From: Candidatus Nanoarchaeia archaeon
Lineage (GTDB): Archaea > Nanobdellota > Nanobdellia > SCGC-AAA011-G17 > GW2011-AR18
Length of the DNA stretch: 64,000 bases
NCBI GenBank assembly: GCA_035289605.1
Contig: DATDWR010000022.1
Span: 45,295 to 109,294 of the forward strand
Reading direction: 5' to 3'
In this document: positions 1,879 to 60,740 of the stretch, one piece after another
Numbering within the stretch: position 1 is the stretch's first letter
Layout: the number at the start of each line of letters is the position of its first letter
Made by a program: the position numbers and the translations under genes
Notes under the pieces: generated by a model
Seen by the model: the letters and a program-made list of their open reading frames with translations, nothing else
Database searches by the model: none
What the model was told of the DNA's origin: nothing

Positions 1879-2604
1879 TCAGACCTTTTTGGCCAATTTT
1901 TTTAAGGATTCCTTGTCTAGTCTTCTAAATTGCCTGTCGCTTGTTTTTATGTAAGCCCCGTCTATTCTGTCTGCATCAAAGTCTTTTCCGAATACTCTCT
2001 TGAATGCACTGACTGCAAGCTTCATTCCCTGCTCGAGGTTCATTTCCGAATCATATTCTTTTTCTAGTATTTCTTTTAGTTGTGTTTCTGCTTCGCCTAT
2101 AACTGTTGCCTTGTACTGGAAATATATTCCTGTTACGTCTGTTACGTAAAGCTGCGGGCCCTCATCATCTACTCCTGCAAATAGTATGCTCACTCCGAAT
2201 GGTCTTGCTCCTCCGAACTGTGTGTAAGCCTGTTTCATGTTTGCTATGTCTTTGACTAGAGAAAGTATGTCCATTGAACTGTCATATGTTACCTTGTATT
2301 GTTGTGCTATTAGCTGTGCTCTTTCTATTAGAACCCTTCCGTCCATCAAGTATCCTGTTGCGCTTGCTCCTATATGGTCGTCAACCTGGAATACTTTTTC
2401 TATGCTTTGCCCTATCATTAGTTTTTCTAGAATTCTTTTGTCTGCTAGTAATAATACTCCGTCTTTGCATACTATTCCTAAGGATGTTGTGCCTTGCCTG
2501 ACTGCTTTTTTTGCATATTCTACCTGAAGCAGTCTTCCGTCTGGGCTGAACATTGTGCTGCTCCTGTCATATCCCATCATTTGGTGTGTTATTGTTGGCT
2601 GCAC
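1879..2604 (-). CDS. psmA: Proteasome alpha subunit
   Basis: 241 aa. …YDRSSTMFSPDGRLLQVEYAKKAVRQGTTSLGI… is the proteasome alpha signature. Confidence 0.9.
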   Translation of the reverse strand: MQPTITHQMMGYDRSSTMFSPDGRLLQVEYAKKAVRQGTTSLGIVCKDGVLLLADKRILEKLMIGQSIEKVFQVDDHIGASATGYLMDGRVLIERAQLIAQQYKVTYDSSMDILSLVKDIANMKQAYTQFGGARPFGVSILFAGVDDEGPQLYVTDVTGIYFQYKATVIGEAETQLKEILEKEYDSEMNLEQGMKLAVSAFKRVFGKDFDADRIDGAYIKTSDRQFRRLDKESLKKLAKKV

Positions 2605-2951
2605 TATGATGCACCTCTATGCAGAAATTTGGATCTGGATTTGTTTATCATTCCTGAAGCTCCTAAGCTCCTAAGAAGAATGTCTTCTTTATTAATCTTT
2701 CTCACGAAGCAGAAGCTCGCCCTCAAATGGTCTAGATATTTGTTGTTTAGTTTTATTACTCCCCTGTTTTTCTGGAATTCTAAAAAGTTCAAGTTTGCTT
2801 TTGATAGTGTAAAGTTTCCGAAGTATTCTCTAAATTTTTCAGTTACTTCTTCTTTAAGTTTCTTGTATTCTATGTTGCCTTCGCTTATTACTTCATACAC
2901 TAGGTATCTTTTCTTTTCTCTTAAGCTCGGCTTCAGCAATTTTTGTTTCAT
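2604..2951 (-). CDS. rnp2: RNase P protein component 2 (Pop5-like)
   Basis: 115 aa basic protein immediately upstream of psmA, with a 1-nt overlap. This is the conserved Pop5 position in the superoperon. N-terminal …REKKRYLVYEVISE… resembles Pop5. Confidence 0.55.
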   Translation of the reverse strand: MKQKLLKPSLREKKRYLVYEVISEGNIEYKKLKEEVTEKFREYFGNFTLSKANLNFLEFQKNRGVIKLNNKYLDHLRASFCFVRKINKEDILLRSLGASGMINKSRSKFLHRGAS

Positions 2952-6643: not shown

Positions 6644-7138
6644 TTAGACAAAATTGCAGAGGCTTAAAGCATAATCTGCTTCATTTCCAGTCATCCCCAT
6701 AATCCTAAGTAAGCTCAAGAAATCTATTCTTCCTATCATCTGATATTTGTTTGAGGCAAAGCTGAAGAAGAAAATTTTTACTTTGTATTTCCTGCACAGT
6801 TTTATGCTTTTCATAACCCAGTTTAGTTCTATATTTGAATTAATTTTGTTAATGCTGAAAGCCACAGCAATTTCATTTTTCCTTGCAGCCTCGCACATTA
6901 TGTGATCAAGTCCTATTCTGTCTGTTGAATATGTATCTTTTTTTCCAAATAAATGAGGGTTAAGCAGTAATTTTATTCTTTTGTTTTCTATTAAATTTCT
7001 TGCTTCCGAATATGTTTTTGCTTCCTGCATTCCAAACTTTTTGATGTCATCTTTGAAGTAAATTTTTGAGTATCCTAAAAGCTTAGCAAAGTTTTTAGTG
7101 TCACTATTCTCTTCCATTAATGTGATATCGCAAAACAT
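6644..7138 (-). CDS. rnp3: RNase P protein component 3 (Rpp30/Rpp1-like, short form)
   Basis: 164 aa. C-terminal …KLCRKYKVKIFFFSFASNKYQMIGRIDFLSLLRIMGM… resembles the Rpp30 TIM-barrel C-terminus (…KYKVRRFLTSSA…DLISLGVVIGM…). Sits in the superoperon neighbourhood. Confidence 0.55.
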   Translation of the reverse strand: MFCDITLMEENSDTKNFAKLLGYSKIYFKDDIKKFGMQEAKTYSEARNLIENKRIKLLLNPHLFGKKDTYSTDRIGLDHIMCEAARKNEIAVAFSINKINSNIELNWVMKSIKLCRKYKVKIFFFSFASNKYQMIGRIDFLSLLRIMGMTGNEADYALSLCNFV

Positions 7139-8399: not shown

Positions 8400-8687
8400 T
8401 TAGTCTACTGTAAACAGTTCATTGTCATGGTCTACATCAAATACTCCGATTCTTGCTCCTGCATCTAGCCAACCATGAGCATAATTTAATGCAGCAAATG
8501 CTGTTACATAGTCTCCTTTTTTCATGAAGTGTTTTGCATCTTCGTAGTATCTTTGTGCCATGTCTAAGAATATTTCTGCAGTTTCTTTTGTGTTTATCTT
8601 TATCCCCGGGTTTATCTTTACTTTCTTCAATGCTCTTCCTGTTACTTCAAAATATTTCTTCAATTTATGTTCTGTTATCTCTTTCAT
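8400..8687 (-). CDS. Small conserved archaeal protein (DUF357-like)
   Basis: 95 aa with an …ALNYAHGWLDAGARIG… motif. Family assignment is from memory only. Confidence 0.3.
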   Translation of the reverse strand: MKEITEHKLKKYFEVTGRALKKVKINPGIKINTKETAEIFLDMAQRYYEDAKHFMKKGDYVTAFAALNYAHGWLDAGARIGVFDVDHDNELFTVD

Positions 8688-8721
8688 AGTATAAACAAAA
8701 ATTAAAGAATTAAATACTTAT

Positions 8722-10254
8722 CTAACAAGCACTATATTTATTTAATTGTTGTGGTACATAGTCTTTAGAATATATAGCATATACATTCCCAACACTATCA
8801 ACATCAACATCAGTAATTAAACCGTCTGGACCATATGTATTATTTTGAGGGAAAAAAACTTCATTTTTGACTACTGTAGTTACATATTTCCCATTATTGT
8901 CGAATTTCCACACAGCACTCTTTGACCTATCTGCAACAAATAAGGCTTTATCTTGTGCTTTTGATGCAGCTAGTTTCAGATTACGAGACGAGAATTTCTC
9001 ACTTTGTGGTCCTGTAAGTGCATAAAGCAGTTGATTGGCTGGTGATATTTTTATTACTCTGCTTTCTCTCCAAGGAACTACATTAAAATTGAATGTTGAA
9101 GCTACATAAAGCCCTTGAGGGCTAGTTTGTTCAAAAATTAAGGACATTGGATAAACACTTGTGGTTGTTGGAACAACTGTCTTCAAATCAAAGCTAGGCA
9201 ATTCCTGTCCTGCAGCAGTAAACATGAATACTTTGTCGCTGAATGCTACTGCGAAGTCTCCATTAGATTTAACATTCATAACAAATCCTCCAGCATTATT
9301 ATGTGCTTTCTGCACAAATGGAGTCAGAGTTTTGGTTACAGTGTTAAACTTAGCGACATAAAAAGTGCCGGATTTTGCATATGCTAAATACAGGTTATTC
9401 GCTGGTGCGTTAAATACTCTTGGACTGTATATTCCAGGCAATGCTTGGGTGTATTTTATAGCTCCTAGGTTATTAGCTAAGGCATCATATGCTGTTAATA
9501 CTAAATTAGGAGAATAAGATATCGGTTGTATAACAACATAAAATTTGTCCCCGCTTATTGTAAAATCCTTGCCTTCACCATTTAGCGCTATATCTTTCAA
9601 TAAATCTCCTGTATCACTTTTAAATAATCTTAATTTATATCTTGTTAACATCGCACTCAATGTAGGACCTATCTGCATAAATTTATAGCTATACTGTTCT
9701 CCAGTGTCTTTAGAGTAGATTTGTGAATATAGTTTAGGTGAGCCATCGTTATTTGTTAGTAATGTCCCTGAAGAATCTTTGCATTGTCCTATGCATCTAG
9801 ATGGTTGGGAAGTAGAAGTTGTGCTAAGGCATCCGTTTGTACACTTCTGGCTTTTTGTTGCAGGGCATGTTGCGCCTGTTTTAGAAGTTGATGTTGTTAT
9901 TAGTGTATTATAGTCTGTGCATGTTATTCTTTCTTTACAGTCATTTGTTGGCTGTGTTGTTGTTTTTTGCTTACTGCAAGTCCCGCCTATCGAAGCGCTG
10001 CAAATGTATCCAGCAGGGCAGGTTCCTTGTTTGCCTGGTCCTCCAGTGCACTTCTGTGTTGATGTATGAAAGAATTCTCCTGTGCTTTCTTCTACACTCG
10101 AATCTCCTAAAAAATTATTTCCTGTAAGTATTAATGCAAATGCTAAGACTAAAACTCCTGCAATAACAAGATATTTGTTAGAATTATTAGTAGATTTCTT
10201 TAATTCCATTTCTGTAACTATTTCACCTCTAACATTTTTTAGGTTGAAAGGCAT
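8722..10254 (-). CDS. Secreted/membrane-anchored Cys/Thr-rich protein with C-terminal beta-propeller-like (NHL-type) repeats
   Basis: 510 aa. N-terminal TM helix YLVIAGVLVLAFALILT. Cys- and Thr-rich stalk. Repeated beta-strand-rich segments, e.g. GPDGLITDVDVDSVGNVYAIYS. Confidence 0.5.
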   Translation of the reverse strand: MPFNLKNVRGEIVTEMELKKSTNNSNKYLVIAGVLVLAFALILTGNNFLGDSSVEESTGEFFHTSTQKCTGGPGKQGTCPAGYICSASIGGTCSKQKTTTQPTNDCKERITCTDYNTLITTSTSKTGATCPATKSQKCTNGCLSTTSTSQPSRCIGQCKDSSGTLLTNNDGSPKLYSQIYSKDTGEQYSYKFMQIGPTLSAMLTRYKLRLFKSDTGDLLKDIALNGEGKDFTISGDKFYVVIQPISYSPNLVLTAYDALANNLGAIKYTQALPGIYSPRVFNAPANNLYLAYAKSGTFYVAKFNTVTKTLTPFVQKAHNNAGGFVMNVKSNGDFAVAFSDKVFMFTAAGQELPSFDLKTVVPTTTSVYPMSLIFEQTSPQGLYVASTFNFNVVPWRESRVIKISPANQLLYALTGPQSEKFSSRNLKLAASKAQDKALFVADRSKSAVWKFDNNGKYVTTVVKNEVFFPQNNTYGPDGLITDVDVDSVGNVYAIYSKDYVPQQLNKYSAC

Positions 10255-10718: not shown

Positions 10719-10848
10719 CGCCGACGCCAGGATTTGAACCTAGAATTCCTTGCGGAACTAGTTTACTATTCTGGATTCGAGATACATCAACAATCACATT
10801 GCAAGTAGCGAAAGTTTCTAGCGCCTTACCAGATTAGGCTACGTCGGC
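10719..10848 (-). tRNA. tRNA gene with non-canonical intron(s); anticodon not resolved
   Basis: Minus-strand read starts GCCGACG-UA-GCCU-AAUCUGGUA-AGGC-G and ends CUAGG-UUCAAAU-CCUGG-CGUCGGC-G. This gives a perfect 7-bp acceptor stem, a D-arm with GG, a T-arm with a UUCAAAU loop and discriminator G, followed by an oligo-T run. About 80 nt lie between the D- and T-arms, so one or two introns are implied. Confidence 0.55.
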
Positions 10849-14251: not shown

Positions 14252-14980
14252 ATGCAGGATAAATTACTTGAAATGTTGATGCAGAAGGATGAGATTACAT
14301 GGCAGACTATAATCCTAGATTTAATAAAAACTGGAGAGATGGATCCTTGGGATATAGATATTTCAATACTGTCAAATAAGTATTTAGAAACCATAAAAAA
14401 AATGCAGGAATCAAATTTATTCATTTCAGGAAAAGTTATTTTGGCGTCTGCAATTTTATTGAAAATTAAATCAGAAAAGCTTCTTGTAGAAGGTATAGCC
14501 GCTTTAGATAATTTAATGTTCCCTTCAGATGACATAGAAGAATTAGACCAGTTTGTTGGTGATAAAAAAATAATTCTGGACGCTGAGCCAAAATTGACAA
14601 TTAAAACTCCCCAGACAAGAAAGAAAAAAGTTAGTGTTGATGACCTTATAGGCGCTCTTGAAAAGGCATTGGAAGTGAATGAGAGAAGATTATTAAGGCT
14701 GGCTGAAAGAAATAGGATTCCTGAAAATATGACAATACCTGAAAAGCCTATAGATATAACTTTGATAATAAAGCAGCTTTATGAAAAGATAAAAATTGTT
14801 TTTGCCAAGAAGCCTGTGATAACCTTTAGCGAATTAATAAGTAGTGGGCAAAAACAGGAAAAATTAGCAACATTTGTTCCCTTGTTGCATTTATCCAATC
14901 TGGAAAAAGTAGATCTAAATCAGGAAGAGCATTTCGGAGAGATTTACATAAAATTATATAAACAGCAAGAAGAGAATTAA
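14252..14980 (+). CDS. scpA: Segregation and condensation protein A (kleisin ScpA)
   Basis: 242 aa. …GEMDPWDIDISILSNKYLETI…LFISGKVILASAILLKIKSEKLL… is the ScpA N-terminal signature. Confidence 0.75.
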   Translation: MQDKLLEMLMQKDEITWQTIILDLIKTGEMDPWDIDISILSNKYLETIKKMQESNLFISGKVILASAILLKIKSEKLLVEGIAALDNLMFPSDDIEELDQFVGDKKIILDAEPKLTIKTPQTRKKKVSVDDLIGALEKALEVNERRLLRLAERNRIPENMTIPEKPIDITLIIKQLYEKIKIVFAKKPVITFSELISSGQKQEKLATFVPLLHLSNLEKVDLNQEEHFGEIYIKLYKQQEEN

Positions 14981-15351
14981 GGAGTTTGTCTTTTTATATC
15001 TAAATTGTCAAAATCTGAATCATAGCTTAGAATACATTCACAATTATTTAGCATAGCAATAGTATAATGTACTAAATCTATAAATCTTAATTTTTTATTT
15101 GCATCTGATCTTTTCATAGCCTCAAAAACTGTATTAACATCCACATTAATTATAATTAAATTTAATTTTAAAATTGACTTTATCGATTTTACAGCTCTTT
15201 CTCTGCTAGATTCAAATTCTATTATGTTAAAAGCTTCAATTAAATTTAATGAATCTATTATTCCCCCTTCTCTTAAAGCCTGCTGACAAAGATCCTGATG
15301 TTCATTCTCATAAAAAGCATAAGCTAAGATTGTGCTGTCTATAAATCTCAT
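14977..15351 (-). CDS. vapC: PIN-domain toxin (VapC)
   Basis: 124 aa. MRFIDSTILAY…FIDLVHYTIAML… fits the PIN fold acidic-residue pattern. Overlaps the upstream antitoxin by 4 nt. Confidence 0.75.
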   Translation of the reverse strand: MRFIDSTILAYAFYENEHQDLCQQALREGGIIDSLNLIEAFNIIEFESSRERAVKSIKSILKLNLIIINVDVNTVFEAMKRSDANKKLRFIDLVHYTIAMLNNCECILSYDSDFDNLDIKRQTP

Positions 15352-15581
15352 CTAAACATCCTCTGATTCAGTTCTTTCATTTGCCTTACTGTTAAATTAT
15401 GCTTCGGTTTAACATTCTTAGCTTCTCTAAAAACTTCTTCCACATCTTCTTCAATTGGTTTTATTAATATATTGCCATTTTTTTCTTCTATTTCTACTTT
15501 ACTTCCAACCTCCAAACCTAAATGGTTTCTTATATCTGAAGGAATTGTTATTTGCAGACCTTTGCTTATTGTTACTATCAT
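15348..15581 (-). CDS. vapB: AbrB/MazE/SpoVT-type antitoxin (VapB)
   Basis: 77 aa. MIVTISKGLQITIPSDIRNHLGLEVGSKVEIEEKNGNILIKP is a swapped-hairpin domain. Confidence 0.7.
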   Translation of the reverse strand: MIVTISKGLQITIPSDIRNHLGLEVGSKVEIEEKNGNILIKPIEEDVEEVFREAKNVKPKHNLTVRQMKELNQRMFR

Positions 15582-15696: not shown

Positions 15697-16374
15697 TTAT
15701 TGATCATCTTTATATTCACCTAATGTCTTTTGTTTTTTAGATTTCTTCCCACTTGCATATTCTTGGTATGGTGCCCATGAGTGTCTGAATATTTCAGGAT
15801 ATTTGTTCCAGTTTTCCTTCAAGAATTGTTTAGTTTTAGGATCAGAGACATACCCAGAACCAAAGTCAATTCCTATTCTCTTTTTTATTAATAAAACTTC
15901 TTCCTCTCTTGCGCACTTTGCTAATATTGAAGCAGCCCCTACAGCAACGAAATTTTTGTCGGCATGGTGTTCACATCTTAGTGAGGAATTTATTTTTATT
16001 TTGTTTTTCAAGAATTGTGCGAATGCTTTTTTATTGTTGCTTGGACAATCAACTACAACTTGGTCTGGCTTAAGATAGTTTATTATTTCAGCCATTTTTT
16101 CCCCTTCCAGAAAATTTAAATTAGAAACTCCATCAGACATTACAGCTTTGTCAACTTCTTCAGGATATACTTTTATTATTTTGTAATCCTTAACAATTTT
16201 CACTATTTCCTTGCAAATCCTTTCTCTCTGTTTTTGCGTCAATAATTTAGAATCTTTTACTCCAATAGACTTCAGTTTATCTAAATCATTTTCTTCTATT
16301 AATACTCCAGCCATTATCATTGGACCTATTACTGGGCCACGGCCAGCATCATCAATACCACAAATTAATGTCAT
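15697..16374 (-). CDS. rnhB: Ribonuclease HII
   Basis: 225 aa. N-terminal GIDDAGRGPVIGPMIMAGV is the RNase HII active-site motif. Confidence 0.85.
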   Translation of the reverse strand: MTLICGIDDAGRGPVIGPMIMAGVLIEENDLDKLKSIGVKDSKLLTQKQRERICKEIVKIVKDYKIIKVYPEEVDKAVMSDGVSNLNFLEGEKMAEIINYLKPDQVVVDCPSNNKKAFAQFLKNKIKINSSLRCEHHADKNFVAVGAASILAKCAREEEVLLIKKRIGIDFGSGYVSDPKTKQFLKENWNKYPEIFRHSWAPYQEYASGKKSKKQKTLGEYKDDQ

Positions 16375-16549: not shown

Positions 16550-17212
16550 GTGGAGTTTATAAATAAAAACTCACTTAATTATAAAATGAAATTGGAAAAA
16601 GAAATATTTTTAGCTTCGCATGTAAGTGCTGATGGTTGGCTATCAAAATATATAGAAAAAAATTGTCTGCAGATAGTTCATGGAAGAAGATATTATAAAA
16701 ATAGAATGAGATATACTATAGGTTATTGTAATAACAATAAGGTTCTGATAGAATTATTTGTGAGAAATATGTTTGATGCTTTTAGTTTAAAACCTAGATA
16801 TGCCAAGAATAAAACCCAAGTAATTTTTAGATCAAAAAGAGTGTATGATCAATTAAAAGAGTTAGGTACAGGGGATAGTTATAATTGGTTTATTCATAAA
16901 TCTGTTTATAAAAGAAAAAGATTAATGCAAATATGGTTGAGATCTTTTTATGATGACGAGTCTACTTTAAATGGTAAAAGAGTAATTGTAGATAGTGTAA
17001 ATAAAAATGGTCTAAGACAAGTAAGTCAGCTATTAAAAAAACTTAAAATTAATCACATTTTCAGAGAATATAATTTCAAGTATAAAGGATTAATAAAGAA
17101 AAGATATAGAATTACTGCTTATAATTTAGAGCAATATTATAATTTAATAGGTTTTAACAATACAGAAAAGAAATCTAAAATTTTAAAGTTGCTAAGGAAA
17201 TACAGAGTATAG
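16550..17212 (+). CDS. Free-standing LAGLIDADG homing endonuclease (double-motif)
   Basis: First motif FLASHVSADGWLS and second motif WLRSFYDDESTL, at the right spacing. ORF opens with GTG at 16550. The more probable start is ATG at 16586 (MKLEKEIF…). Preceded by the conserved 80-nt leader. Confidence 0.75.
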   Translation: MEFINKNSLNYKMKLEKEIFLASHVSADGWLSKYIEKNCLQIVHGRRYYKNRMRYTIGYCNNNKVLIELFVRNMFDAFSLKPRYAKNKTQVIFRSKRVYDQLKELGTGDSYNWFIHKSVYKRKRLMQIWLRSFYDDESTLNGKRVIVDSVNKNGLRQVSQLLKKLKINHIFREYNFKYKGLIKKRYRITAYNLEQYYNLIGFNNTEKKSKILKLLRKYRV

Positions 17213-17220
17213 CGGGAGTT

Positions 17221-17490
17221 CTCCAGAGCAACTTTCGTCAACCCTTTTGGATTTGAACCAACGACCCAACCGTGCTAATAGCATTTCGGGTATCGCAAAG
17301 AGTGCTTAACTCCTTATGAGCCTTCCGCGATAAGACATTCCATCAATTATCTCGACGGACATTTAGGCACTATAAGTGTCTCCTAGTTGGACGTATAAAT
17401 TACTCTGTCCTATCCTTATAGGCCCAAAGGCTCGCTATGGTATCAGCTTTCCGCTACCTCTGCAGAATTCAGAATCCCAGTTATTTTTAT
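17221..17490. ncRNA. GC-rich structured RNA candidate (minus strand favoured); possible reduced RNase P RNA or other structured ncRNA
   Basis: About 270 nt with no ORF and about 45% GC in a roughly 30% GC genome. Ends can pair (UCUGCAGAG / CUCUGGAGA). Minus-strand read contains GCGGAAAGCUGAUACCAUAGCGAGCC (compare RNase P CR-I GGAAAGUCCGGGCUCCAUAGGGCA), CUUAUCG (compare GGCUUAUCGG) and a GGUUCAAAUCC T-loop-like motif. Confidence 0.35.
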
Positions 17491-17533
17491 AAACCTTTTG
17501 TATCTTATTTATCACAGCACTTAAGGTAAAAAG

Positions 17534-18175
17534 ATGTATCAGCAAGTAAACCCAAAAGAGCTGAAGGAAATTGAGAGTAATATAGCTAAAGGTATTAGCC
17601 TTAAAGATAGTTTTAGTTTTGTTAAGACAGTTGCCGCTTTTGATATAGCTTATTCAGAAAAGACTTACAAGTGTGTTGCAGTAGTTATAGATATTGAAAA
17701 CTTAAAGGAATTAGAAGTCAAGCACATAGAGGGAGAAGAAATAATGCCTTATTCTCCAAAGCTGGTAATTTTCAGAGAAGGTCCTGTAATTTTAGAGTCT
17801 TATAGAAGTTTATCCATAAAACCTGACATATTAATAGTTAAGGGTAATGGCTTTATGAAGAAAAGTTCCATAGGTTTGGCTAGTTATGTTGGTGTCTTGC
17901 TTAATAAGCCTGTTATTGGTGTTGCTAAAGAACTTGTTGCTGGCAGGCTTGATGAGGATAAGATTATTGCAAATAATGATGTTGTCGGCTTTGCCTTGAA
18001 GGCCAAGGAGTTTGCAAATCCTGTGTATATCACTCCAGGCCATAATATTTGTTTGGATTCAAGTGTTAAAATAATTAAGAAAGTTCTTTCTCCTTCATAC
18101 AAGCTTCCATTGCCTATGCACATGGCACATAAATATGTTAATAAAATAAAAAAAGAATATATACAAAAGATTTAA
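17534..18175 (+). CDS. nfi: Endonuclease V (deoxyinosine 3' endonuclease)
   Basis: 213 aa. …AAFDIAY… and …ILIVKGNGFMKKSSIGLASYVGVLLNKPVIGVAKE… match EndoV conserved blocks. Confidence 0.8.
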   Translation: MYQQVNPKELKEIESNIAKGISLKDSFSFVKTVAAFDIAYSEKTYKCVAVVIDIENLKELEVKHIEGEEIMPYSPKLVIFREGPVILESYRSLSIKPDILIVKGNGFMKKSSIGLASYVGVLLNKPVIGVAKELVAGRLDEDKIIANNDVVGFALKAKEFANPVYITPGHNICLDSSVKIIKKVLSPSYKLPLPMHMAHKYVNKIKKEYIQKI

Positions 18176-59603: not shown

Positions 59604-60740
59604 AGTGGTTTTTGCATTTTCCTTTCAGATGAAGCTTAGCTTCTGCTTATTTTAATACTAATTTCCCCTCAGTTTAATAGAGCTCCCGCTATTCCCCTAA
59701 TCAGCAAGAGTCATTGTTGAATGTTTTTTCAAGTTGTTTGTAAGTTTCTCTTACAAATTTTTTGAAAGTGATTTCTGTTTTATGATATAGATTCCATGCA
59801 AGTAAAAGCAACATAGAGATTGTGAAGTAAAACATTCTTATTACTGGATTAGTGCTTTTACTTTTTATTTTTGCTTCATCATGAACACGAAACATTGTTT
59901 CTATGTTCCATCGTTTCTTGTATAAAGAAACATATTTTCTTGCTTCCTGCAAGAAAATGTTTGAAGCAAAAACCCAGTCATGTTCTTTGAAGTTTTTTAT
60001 TAATGTAATATTTGTTTGTGCTTTATGTTTGCTTTTGTTTTTTGAATACTTTACTCTATATTCTATTACTGCTTGTTTTTCTACTGATTCAAGCATTGGC
60101 TTGAATGCTTTATTTTTTGGAACAAAAATAAGATAGTTTGCATTTTTCATTTGCAAAGTGCCTATTATGTCTCCTGAATAAAATCCTCGATCGAAAAGTA
60201 AGCAACTGAATTTTATTCCAATGTTGTTTGCATAGCCTATTGCTTTTCCTAAGTATTCTGTCTTGAAAGCTCCTACAGGCAGAATACTTATGTAAAATGG
60301 AATCATCTGATTTCTAAACAAAATTGCCACAACCAGAAACCTGAACTTTCCTACAATTCCTTTTTCTCCAGTCCAGCCATGAATATACAAACTGGAAGTT
60401 TTTCCATAGAAATCTTCTTCAGTTATATCTGCAACTAATTTTACGCAACCAAGTCTTTGTTTGCGTATGAGTTCTTTAGCGAACCTAAAGAACTCGATAG
60501 TTATTGTTTCTGAATAATTTTTATTTATATTCCAATGTAAACTATCTGCTATACATTCATTTATATTTTCTACATAAGTATTTTCTTTGCTAGCTTCAGA
60601 AACCGCAAGTATTACCTCTTCCCTGTTAATACAAAGCTTTTTTAAAAAGCTTTTCACTAATCTCTTCACGTTTGATTCAGAGATTAATCAATGCACAACT
60701 AGTGCATTGATTTTTCTCTAAATTCTGAAGTAGTAAAAAT
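59604..60740 (-). mobile_element. Putative IS element carrying the transposase gene; boundaries approximate
   Basis: Only weak candidate terminal inverted repeats were found: GTGGTTTTTGC… at about 59606 versus GTGATTTTTAC… reverse complement at about 60737. No clear target-site duplication. Confidence 0.3.
59701..60669 (-). CDS. IS4/IS5-superfamily DDE transposase
   Basis: 322 aa. …LLFDRGFYS… and …YKKRWNIETMFRVHDEAKIK… (Y-2-R-3-E-6-K type) are characteristic of IS4-like transposases. Confidence 0.7.
   Translation of the reverse strand: MKRLVKSFLKKLCINREEVILAVSEASKENTYVENINECIADSLHWNINKNYSETITIEFFRFAKELIRKQRLGCVKLVADITEEDFYGKTSSLYIHGWTGEKGIVGKFRFLVVAILFRNQMIPFYISILPVGAFKTEYLGKAIGYANNIGIKFSCLLFDRGFYSGDIIGTLQMKNANYLIFVPKNKAFKPMLESVEKQAVIEYRVKYSKNKSKHKAQTNITLIKNFKEHDWVFASNIFLQEARKYVSLYKKRWNIETMFRVHDEAKIKSKSTNPVIRMFYFTISMLLLLAWNLYHKTEITFKKFVRETYKQLEKTFNNDSC

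Follow-up and report, generated by a model that had tools for sequence, protein, structure and literature searches.

A predicted initiator tRNA-Met gene in eight exons, with seven bulge-helix-bulge-type introns, in a DPANN archaeon

The multi-intron tRNA genes of Thermoproteales (Pyrobaculum, Thermofilum, Caldivirga) carry short introns at position 37/38 and at non-canonical positions, with a bulge-helix-bulge or relaxed motif at each junction; introns are gained and lost, and a splicing endonuclease of broad specificity is needed. A 2014 review gave three as the maximum number of introns per archaeal tRNA gene (PMC4033280), and the 2021 paper on tRNAscan-SE 2.0 likewise describes archaeal tRNA introns as 'up to three' (PMC8450103). 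Kaneta et al. (2018, PMC5829648) explained the incomplete tRNA sets of new DPANN and Asgard genomes by disrupted tRNA genes that had escaped identification. Here we describe a locus in 64,000 nucleotides (nt) from a Candidatus Nanoarchaeia archaeon (assembly GCA_035289605.1, contig DATDWR010000022.1, positions 45,295 to 109,294 of the forward strand; this whole stretch is called the window). Its minus strand, at 17464..17203, very probably encodes the precursor of an archaeal initiator tRNA-Met, 75 nt in eight exons with seven bulge-helix-bulge-type introns. Full-text literature searches on more than three introns, on disrupted tRNAs in Woesearchaeota and on RNase P RNA in DPANN found no such gene described. 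Judged from its sequence, the gene would extend a known class, that of tRNA introns removed by the archaeal endonuclease, to a new extreme of seven introns.

Joining the eight exon blocks of the window gave AGCGGGAUAGGACAGCUAGGAGUGUCCGUCGGGCUCAUAACCCGAAGGUCGUUGGUUCAAAUCCAACUCCCGCUA, which ARAGORN called as tRNA-Met(CAT) with a regular 7/4/5/5 cloverleaf. The coding sequence of 75 nt is spread over a precursor of ~262 nt, in exons of 4-20 nt (n=8) and introns of 17-30 nt (n=7). In the joined sequence the anticodon CAU lies within the 7-nt loop CUCAUAA with U33 present, the D loop is standard with GG, the T loop reads UUCAAAU, and CCA is not encoded. Three consecutive G:C pairs at the base of the anticodon stem mark initiator tRNAs, and the product has them as G29-G31:C39-C41. 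It also has A1:U72, a pair conserved as the mark of initiators in archaea and eukaryotes (PMC5393177). The combination of A1:U72 with the three G:C pairs therefore indicates an initiator tRNA, and the sequences that form them (AGCGGGA.../...UCCCGCUA and UCGGG/CCCGA) were present in all homologues.

These homologues, eleven in number, come from related groundwater archaea and make twelve genes with that of the window (window, L006, L016, L019-L022, L024, L025, L027, L030 and L032); the window contig itself was found identical in many groundwater assemblies. Scanning species-representative genomes that carry nfi, the neighbour of the locus, returned four Woesearchaeota-type loci, with an RNA homologue upstream of nfi in L016 (nhmmer E 4.7e-31), while in the nfi relatives L015, L017 and L018 the RNA gene was not beside nfi. 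A two-block pattern from the conserved part, GGAAGGCTCATAAN{8,36}GCGATACCC, found ten further metagenome loci and one GC-rich chance match (L028), which was discarded; the viral contigs scanned with it gave no matches. The shortest homologue, L022, reads AGCGGGAUGGGACAGCUAGGAG[..]UGUCCGUCG[..]GGCUCAUA[..]ACCCGAAGGUCGAAGGUUCAAAUCCUUCUCCCGCUA, an initiator-type tRNA-Met with three interruptions, and its spliced sequence was likewise called by ARAGORN as tRNA-Met(CAT) with a 7/4/5/5 cloverleaf. L022 was used as the template for a spliced alignment to all homologues, which placed the exon blocks. Ten distinct genes yielded spliced products; of the other two, L032 comprises the last intron and 3′ end only, and L030 was read by eye. 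All ten products were the same tRNA, and matching exon blocks were found in all twelve genes. The genes read at full length contain 3-7 insertions at eight sites, and that of the window contains seven.

The pattern of sequence change also points to a tRNA under constraint. Exons were 93-100% identical to those of the window and shared introns 45-96%, and the exons kept this identity among genomes whose nfi proteins are merely 62-66% identical (L015, L016, L018). In the three distinct mature sequences all 21 of 21 stem pairs are standard. Of seven variable positions in the mature tRNA, six form three compensatory pairs, one of which (7:66) joins exons lying ~200 nt apart in the window. The homologue L006 (1140-1530, on the minus strand of its locus) matches the window gene exactly as far as exon 7 and L019 exactly from there on, starting with intron 7, and this mixed allele accounts for an A7.C66 mismatch in its spliced product. 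L006 is most likely a chimeric assembly of two strains, the alternative being a recombinant.

The unspliced locus was not recognised by standard searches. Rfam at gathering thresholds over the whole 64-kb window gave no match at the locus, Rfam at E ≤ 10 on 17100-17600 of both strands gave as its sole match a chance snoRNA (E 8.2), and ARAGORN called no tRNA in the window. Among the homologues, the Rfam tRNA model failed to match at the six loci scanned, and ARAGORN at the nine scanned, the three-intron L022 included. With 3-7 insertions in the genomic sequence, such a miss by the tRNA finders is to be expected; the spliced sequence alone passes.

Across the homologues, insertions occupy eight sites in standard tRNA numbering: 4/5, 15/16, 20a/21, 29/30, 37/38, 44-46, 53/54 and 59-64. 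Insertion-free alleles exist at six of the eight, with the exons unchanged there, and the boundaries at these sites are therefore fixed independently of any model. Junctions were then compared with the bulge-helix-bulge motif, a central helix of 4 base pairs (bp) with two 3-nt bulges, each 3′ of a helix strand, in which cleavage after the second bulge nucleotide yields the exon junction. In this register the last two nucleotides are set aside in both the upstream exon and the intron, and the 4 nt preceding them in one have to pair with those in the other. In nine distinct genes every intron (53/53) had at least 3/4 pairs and 28/53 had 4/4, against 16.5% and 2.5%, respectively, for mis-registered site pairs in the same sequences. 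Of the seven window introns, four reach 4/4 in the central helix and three reach 3/4; introns start with A, and in 6/7 the 3′ bulge has AA, or an A-rich pair, at the intron end. Within the motifs, the hairpins of the introns vary in sequence and retain pairing. Intron 3 has CAC/GUG in the window and UUUUUU/AAAAAA in L016; the inner helix of intron 4 is GAUAA/UUAUC in the window and AGUAA/UUACU in L016; and the inner hairpin of intron 7 is UGAC-GAAA-GUUG in the window, GUAA/GUCG in L006 and AAUAU/GUCA in L016. Inner helices span 2-5 bp in the window gene, against a maximum of 9 bp in other genes. In intron 5 the 3-nt bulge AU↓A (the arrow marking cleavage) adjoins the anticodon stem. A further intron of 30-32 nt at 53/54, between T stem and T loop, with a 4/4 central helix CGUU/GACG, occurs in L021 (3900-4300), L024 (11100-11500) and L025 (7400-7800), and is absent from the window.

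Upstream of the tRNA, all eight genes that have the 4/5 intron also have a conserved leader of ~28 nt before A1. The 5′ part of the leader pairs with the acceptor 3′ strand and the trailer, its last two nucleotides together with A1 and G2 form a strand of the central helix of intron 1 (AUAG/CUAU), and in most homologues its UACC pairs with G6-A9 as an outer helix. The leader-trailer duplex reaches -20.6 to -25.6 kcal/mol in 8/8 genes with an acceptor-stem intron, compared with -3.7 (L020) and -1.9 kcal/mol (L022) in the two genes without one, where no such helix exists. Compensatory changes were found in the duplex (CAGAGGAC/GUCCUCUG, AGAGAUU/AAUCUCU, CAGAGGAA/UUCCUCUG), so that a closing terminal helix proposed in an earlier note on this stretch proved real and covaries among the homologues. 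The motif AAAAG(C/G)TTTAWAWAA lies upstream of all homologues. In the long-form genes its end is 21-22 nt away from the leader start; in the two leaderless forms, 22 nt separate it from tRNA A1. L020 (~8600-8900) and L022 (~100-330), both on the minus strand, are short forms with five and three introns, and their precursors are probably nearly leaderless. A reading of the leader-trailer helix as a splice motif that excises the tRNA at its ends was rejected, since the bulges would fall inside the acceptor stem, and a candidate motif inside the window leader (GGUA/UACC) was rejected as unconserved in L016. A second copy of UAGCGG in the window leader (17456-17451, minus strand) provides an alternative 5′ splice site (GUAG/CUAU, 4/4; 36-nt first intron); this alternative exon 1 fits the splice register, but the copy is absent from the other homologues. 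Exon 1 was placed by homology with L016 and the other long-form genes, whose leader has no second AGCG. All parts of the gene are listed in Table 1.

Table 1. Parts of the predicted initiator tRNA-Met gene and the adjoining open reading frame (ORF) in window coordinates. Arrows mark predicted cleavage.
Feature	Position	Strand	Remarks
Promoter: BRE-like AAAAGG (BRE, B recognition element) and TATA box TTTATAAA (17493-17486)	17481..17499	-	motif kept upstream of all homologues
5′ leader UGCAGAGGUAGCGGAAAGCUGAUACCAU	17437..17464	-	28 nt; pairs with acceptor 3′ strand and trailer; gives nt -2 and -1 of the intron 1 splice motif
Exon 1, AGCG	17433..17436	-	tRNA positions 1-4
Intron 1, acceptor stem 4/5	17416..17432	-	17 nt; central helix AUAG/CUAU, 4/4; bulges CG↓A and AA↓G; absent in L020, L022
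Exon 2, GGAUAGGACAG	17405..17415	-	positions 5-15
Intron 2, D loop 15/16	17387..17404	-	18 nt; central helix GGAC/GUCC, 4/4; absent in L016, L019, L021, L022, L024, L027
Exon 3, CUAGGAG	17380..17386	-	positions 16-20a
Intron 3, D loop 20a/21	17362..17379	-	18 nt; central helix UAGG/CCUA, 4/4; absent in L020, L025
Exon 4, UGUCCGUCG	17353..17361	-	positions 21-29
Intron 4, anticodon stem 29/30	17323..17352	-	30 nt; central helix CCGU/GCGG, 4/4; in all homologues; contains CUUAUCG
Exon 5, GGCUCAUA	17315..17322	-	positions 30-37; anticodon CAU
Intron 5, canonical 37/38	17292..17314	-	23 nt; central helix CUCA/UGCG, 3/4; inner hairpin GGAGU..ACUCU; in all homologues
Exon 6, ACCCGAA	17285..17291	-	positions 38-44
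Intron 6, variable loop 44/45	17267..17284	-	18 nt; central helix CCCG/CGGU, 3/4; inner helix 4 bp; absent in L022, L030
Exon 7, GGUCGUUGGUUCAAAUCCAA	17247..17266	-	positions 45-64; T arm
Intron 7, T stem 3′ strand 64/65	17219..17246	-	28 nt; central helix AUCC/GGAG, 3/4; absent in L022, L025; boundary ambiguous by 2 nt owing to repeated A's
Exon 8, CUCCCGCUA	17210..17218	-	positions 65-73; last three nt (CUA, 17212-17210) complement the TAG stop of the ORF
3′ trailer, UACUCUG	17203..17209	-	pairs with leader; overlaps last codons of the ORF on the other strand
LAGLIDADG-like ORF, free-standing	16550..17212	+	convergent with the tRNA gene

We propose the following pathway for the expression of this gene. 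Transcription would start ~22 nt downstream of the conserved BRE/TATA element. At each junction, the last six nucleotides of the upstream exon and the last six of the intron would form the 4-bp helix with two 3-nt bulges and the intron hairpin inside, a motif that can be read directly from sequence and register. Cleavage of both bulges would be the task of the archaeal splicing endonuclease, and an RtcB-type ligase would seal the exons together, as in the established pathway. Exon 1, at 4 nt, is too short to provide the upstream half of the first motif, and the 28-nt leader would serve to complete it for an intron that begins 4 nt into the tRNA; by pairing with the free 3′ strand, the leader would also hold that strand in place. 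Removal of the leader would next fall to RNase P and that of the trailer to an RNase Z-like activity, together with CCA addition. The earlier note had listed both Pop5 and Rpp30 as encoded in this genome; Pop5 is encoded in the window (2604-2951, minus strand; Pfam E 5e-14), and an Rpp30-like ORF there (6644-7138, minus strand) scores below the cutoff (E 1.8e-5). Rfam detected no RNase P RNA in the 64-kb window, and this RNA, which leader removal would require, has yet to be found elsewhere.

Several observations weigh against the seven-intron initiator tRNA. Its expression and splicing are deduced from the sequence, and although no other initiator tRNA gene is present in the 64-kb window, an uninterrupted copy may exist elsewhere in the genome. 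The introns at 29/30 and 37/38 occur in every homologue, so that for these two the boundaries were set by tRNA model and splice register. For the window motifs the outer helix between exons measures just 0-2 bp (for intron 1 it is 4 bp in most homologues), and a fold containing all seven motifs reaches -55.9 kcal/mol, compared with an unconstrained minimum of -83.6. The window motifs are thus a relaxed form of the bulge-helix-bulge, and the short outer helix means that an endonuclease of broad specificity would be required. No EndA was found among the ~fifteen window ORFs scanned against Pfam; an association between an extra loop in DPANN endonucleases and more frequent disruption of tRNA genes has been reported (PMC5829648). 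The distance of the all-motif fold from the minimum suggests either that splicing is ordered or that a protein selects the conformation.

The earlier note had read the locus differently, as a structured RNA beginning 8 nt after the stop of a free-standing LAGLIDADG gene and possibly representing a strongly reduced RNase P RNA. Its outline of the locus was correct: the ORF stands by itself between rnhB (15697-16374, minus strand; Pfam RNase_HII, E 1.5e-40) and nfi (17534-18175, plus strand; Endonuclease_5, E 3.9e-44), and the gap at 17213-17533 holds no ORF of at least 40 amino acids (aa) and has a G+C fraction of 0.39-0.44, compared with ~0.19-0.27 in the ORF and 0.32-0.34 at the start of nfi. 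The stated start of the RNA was not: the RNA is antisense to the ORF, its last CUA complements the TAG stop and its trailer overlaps the last codons. The minus strand folds at -82.2 kcal/mol (z = -2.05) and the plus strand at -67.4 (z = -1.1), and a plus-strand RNA was dropped on account of this weaker fold and the lack of a promoter. In favour of RNase P RNA are the Pop5 and Rpp30-like proteins in a window where no such RNA was found, the long terminal helix, and the superficial resemblance of GGAAAG...CCAUAG to CR-I and of CUUAUCG to the P4 3′ strand. These blocks exist, on the minus strand (~17452-17434 and 17334-17328), as does a T-loop-like GGUUCAAAUCC (17259-17249), but all conserved blocks are accounted for as tRNA exons or splice-motif strands. 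The first is 5′ leader plus tRNA nucleotides 1-2, and in homologues its GGAAAG becomes GGGAAG/GGGGAAG or GGGACGAAG/GGGGACGAAG; the second lies inside intron 4, where it pairs with GAUAA, and becomes CUUACUG (L016) or CCUACUG elsewhere; the third is a genuine tRNA T arm. Moreover, no RNase P model matched at E ≤ 10 on either strand, the shortest homologue lacks the entire 5′ part and keeps all exons, and no P4 pseudoknot could be drawn; fitting P1-P4, CR-I and CR-V by hand gave no P4, with the candidate blocks variable or paired elsewhere. We give an RNase P RNA a negligible chance. Signal recognition particle (SRP) RNA, also raised earlier, had no covariance-model match at gathering thresholds or at E ≤ 10. 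SRP, tmRNA-like and Y-RNA-like RNAs, a group I intron and a split or permuted tRNA were rejected, with no Rfam matches and an unfit architecture. The Rfam searches suggested at the time gave no RNase P, SRP or tRNA match, and the comparison with relatives found the tRNA exon blocks shared by eleven homologues.

Two further explanations accept the tRNA sequence and question its use. The locus could be a decaying pseudogene or relic riddled with insertions, initiation being served by another gene, as the failure of the Rfam tRNA model and ARAGORN at the unspliced loci and the A7.C66 mismatch of L006 might suggest. However, the exons remain 93-100% identical while the introns drift, all stem changes are compensatory among the three distinct spliced sequences (L006 set aside), promoter sequence and spacing are conserved, and all insertions keep the splice register; the mismatched allele, window-like on one side and L019-like on the other, is most likely an assembly chimera. 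Decay is highly improbable, and of the earlier suggestion of a degenerate intron-bearing tRNA the introns stand, whereas the perfect cloverleaf and exon identity speak against degeneracy. Alternatively, the product could be a functional tRNA-derived RNA that is incompletely spliced, either a stable RNA with a tRNA-like end or one from which only some insertions are removed. Its unconstrained multi-branch fold is stable (-82 to -84 kcal/mol, z = -2.05), unlike the all-motif fold, part of intron 4 is complementary to tRNA positions 6-14 and changes in step with the A7/G7 difference, and some intron parts are highly conserved (intron 5 at 0.87-0.96, for example). Yet the insertions vary among relatives at six sites with the exons unchanged, which fits dispensable introns and not functional domains, and the conserved intron ends are exactly the strands that the splice motif needs, leaving this explanation a slim chance.

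Convergent with the tRNA gene lies the LAGLIDADG-like ORF, which encodes 220 aa from a GTG or, more probably, 208 aa from the ATG at 16586 taken by gene callers on identical contigs. The window ORF itself matched Pfam LAGLIDADG_3 with 20.6 bits (E 5.6e-4), below the 22.5-bit cutoff. The family label given earlier draws on a 72% identical homologue (P0002), which passes Pfam with 28.9 bits, and on a match of the window ORF to the intein part of the NCBIfam RFC model (E 4e-6), and makes the ORF a candidate member. Searches of PDB with sequence and profile returned chance-level matches only, and an AlphaFold model had a mean pLDDT (predicted local distance difference test) of 43, too low for a fold search. 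The family is rare, with three clusters among 5.8 billion proteins, P0002 being one of them. All three genomes with the ORF (window, L030/L031 and L032) have it in convergent orientation to the tRNA gene, with a TAG stop that complements the terminal CUA of the tRNA and final codons that overlap the trailer; the genes on its other side differ. The ORF appears to have been inserted directly downstream of the pre-tRNA trailer, with a frame that crosses the trailer and takes in the last 3 nt of the tRNA gene; the ORF-less allele (L019/L016-type) reads ...CCCCCGCUACUUCUCUGCAUUAAUUUU at the junction region. In L006 and L016 the ORF is absent and another occupies the slot between rnhB and the tRNA; for L006, which keeps the RNA and nfi, this is a 272-aa ORF shown to be unrelated, a relation established for L006 only. 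Both relatives still have 6-7 introns, and the introns are therefore independent of the ORF. Taken together, the ORF behaves as a separate selfish gene of sporadic occurrence whose site is the 3′ end of the tRNA gene, and it is predicted to encode an endonuclease.

Other observations were made in the same sequences. The window contains a second tRNA gene at 10719-10848 (minus strand; Rfam tRNA, 42.8 bits) with intact acceptor, D and T arms and a ~65-nt interruption in the anticodon region. ARAGORN misses it, and a brute-force search with one or two introns found no convincing valid anticodon arm; it may have three or more introns. At L021:53-149 (plus strand) is a 96-nt tRNA (Rfam, 53.1 bits) for which ARAGORN reports a 4-base 'anticodon' (cgaa), and which probably contains an intron. 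A MazE-type antitoxin and PIN-domain toxin pair (14977-15581, minus strand) lies just upstream of rnhB and is kept in the identical contigs, and an ORF with a DDE transposase domain (59701-60669, minus strand; Pfam DDE_Tnp_1, E 5.7e-11) is a further mobile element in the window.

The initiator tRNA gene and its neighbour might be linked, a tentative and on balance unlikely proposal. The tRNA body would be unable to fold before splicing is complete, and seven independent motifs, with exons down to 4 nt, would be held by a leader-trailer clamp; the pile-up of introns may be linked to pressure from mobile elements, the LAGLIDADG gene may target the locus, and the introns may alter the sequence that such elements recognise. 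If true, this would be a direct case for the hypothesis that introns protect tRNA genes from integrating elements.

Seven introns in a 75-nt tRNA, with exons of 4 to 9 nt, would more than double the stated limit of three, and the gene would test how far the system of splicing endonuclease and ligase can be pushed. It offers a concrete answer to the apparently incomplete tRNA sets of DPANN genomes, and other genes hidden in this way probably bias estimates of genome completeness and inferences on codon usage in these lineages. Homologues with 3-7 introns at eight sites provide a natural series on intron gain and loss and on leader evolution, and the fixed tRNA-LAGLIDADG junction a testable case of a homing endonuclease tied to an archaeal tRNA locus.

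Among described systems, the disrupted DPANN tRNAs predicted by Kaneta et al. (PMC5829648) include no description of this gene, which would be a concrete and extreme case for one essential tRNA. With the multi-intron genes of Thermoproteales it has in common the short introns at 37/38 and elsewhere, a bulge-helix-bulge or relaxed motif at each junction, intron gain and loss, and the need for a broad-specificity endonuclease. In contrast to their maximum of three introns, the window gene has seven and its relatives 3-7 at eight sites; its exons go down to 4 and 7 nt, its lineage is a DPANN (Woesearchaeota-type) archaeon and not a crenarchaeon, and an intron as close as 4 nt to the 5′ end seems to have a dedicated leader as its scaffold. 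Compared with archaeal initiator tRNA-Met, the spliced product agrees in A1:U72, CAU, the three G:C pairs of the anticodon stem, the GG of the D loop and the T loop UUCAAAU, whereas the gene is in eight pieces, is missed by ARAGORN and the Rfam tRNA model, and leaves CCA unencoded.

For the neighbouring ORF, phage T4 SegB provides a parallel as a free-standing homing endonuclease gene beside tRNA genes, and the I-DmoI type as LAGLIDADG genes inside archaeal rRNA introns. Like these, it is a putative selfish endonuclease gene set against a conserved RNA gene, present or absent in close relatives, with an ORF that uses host junction sequence. Unlike them, it lies outside introns, antisense to the tRNA, is a LAGLIDADG-like gene in an archaeal chromosome, and has a stop codon formed by the terminal CUA of the tRNA. 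Finally, Nanoarchaeum equitans transcribes leaderless tRNAs, which the short forms L020 and L022 resemble in lacking a leader helix and in placing the TATA box 22 nt before tRNA position 1; by contrast, a leader of 28 nt precedes the tRNA in the window gene, in a genome that also has genes for protein subunits of RNase P.

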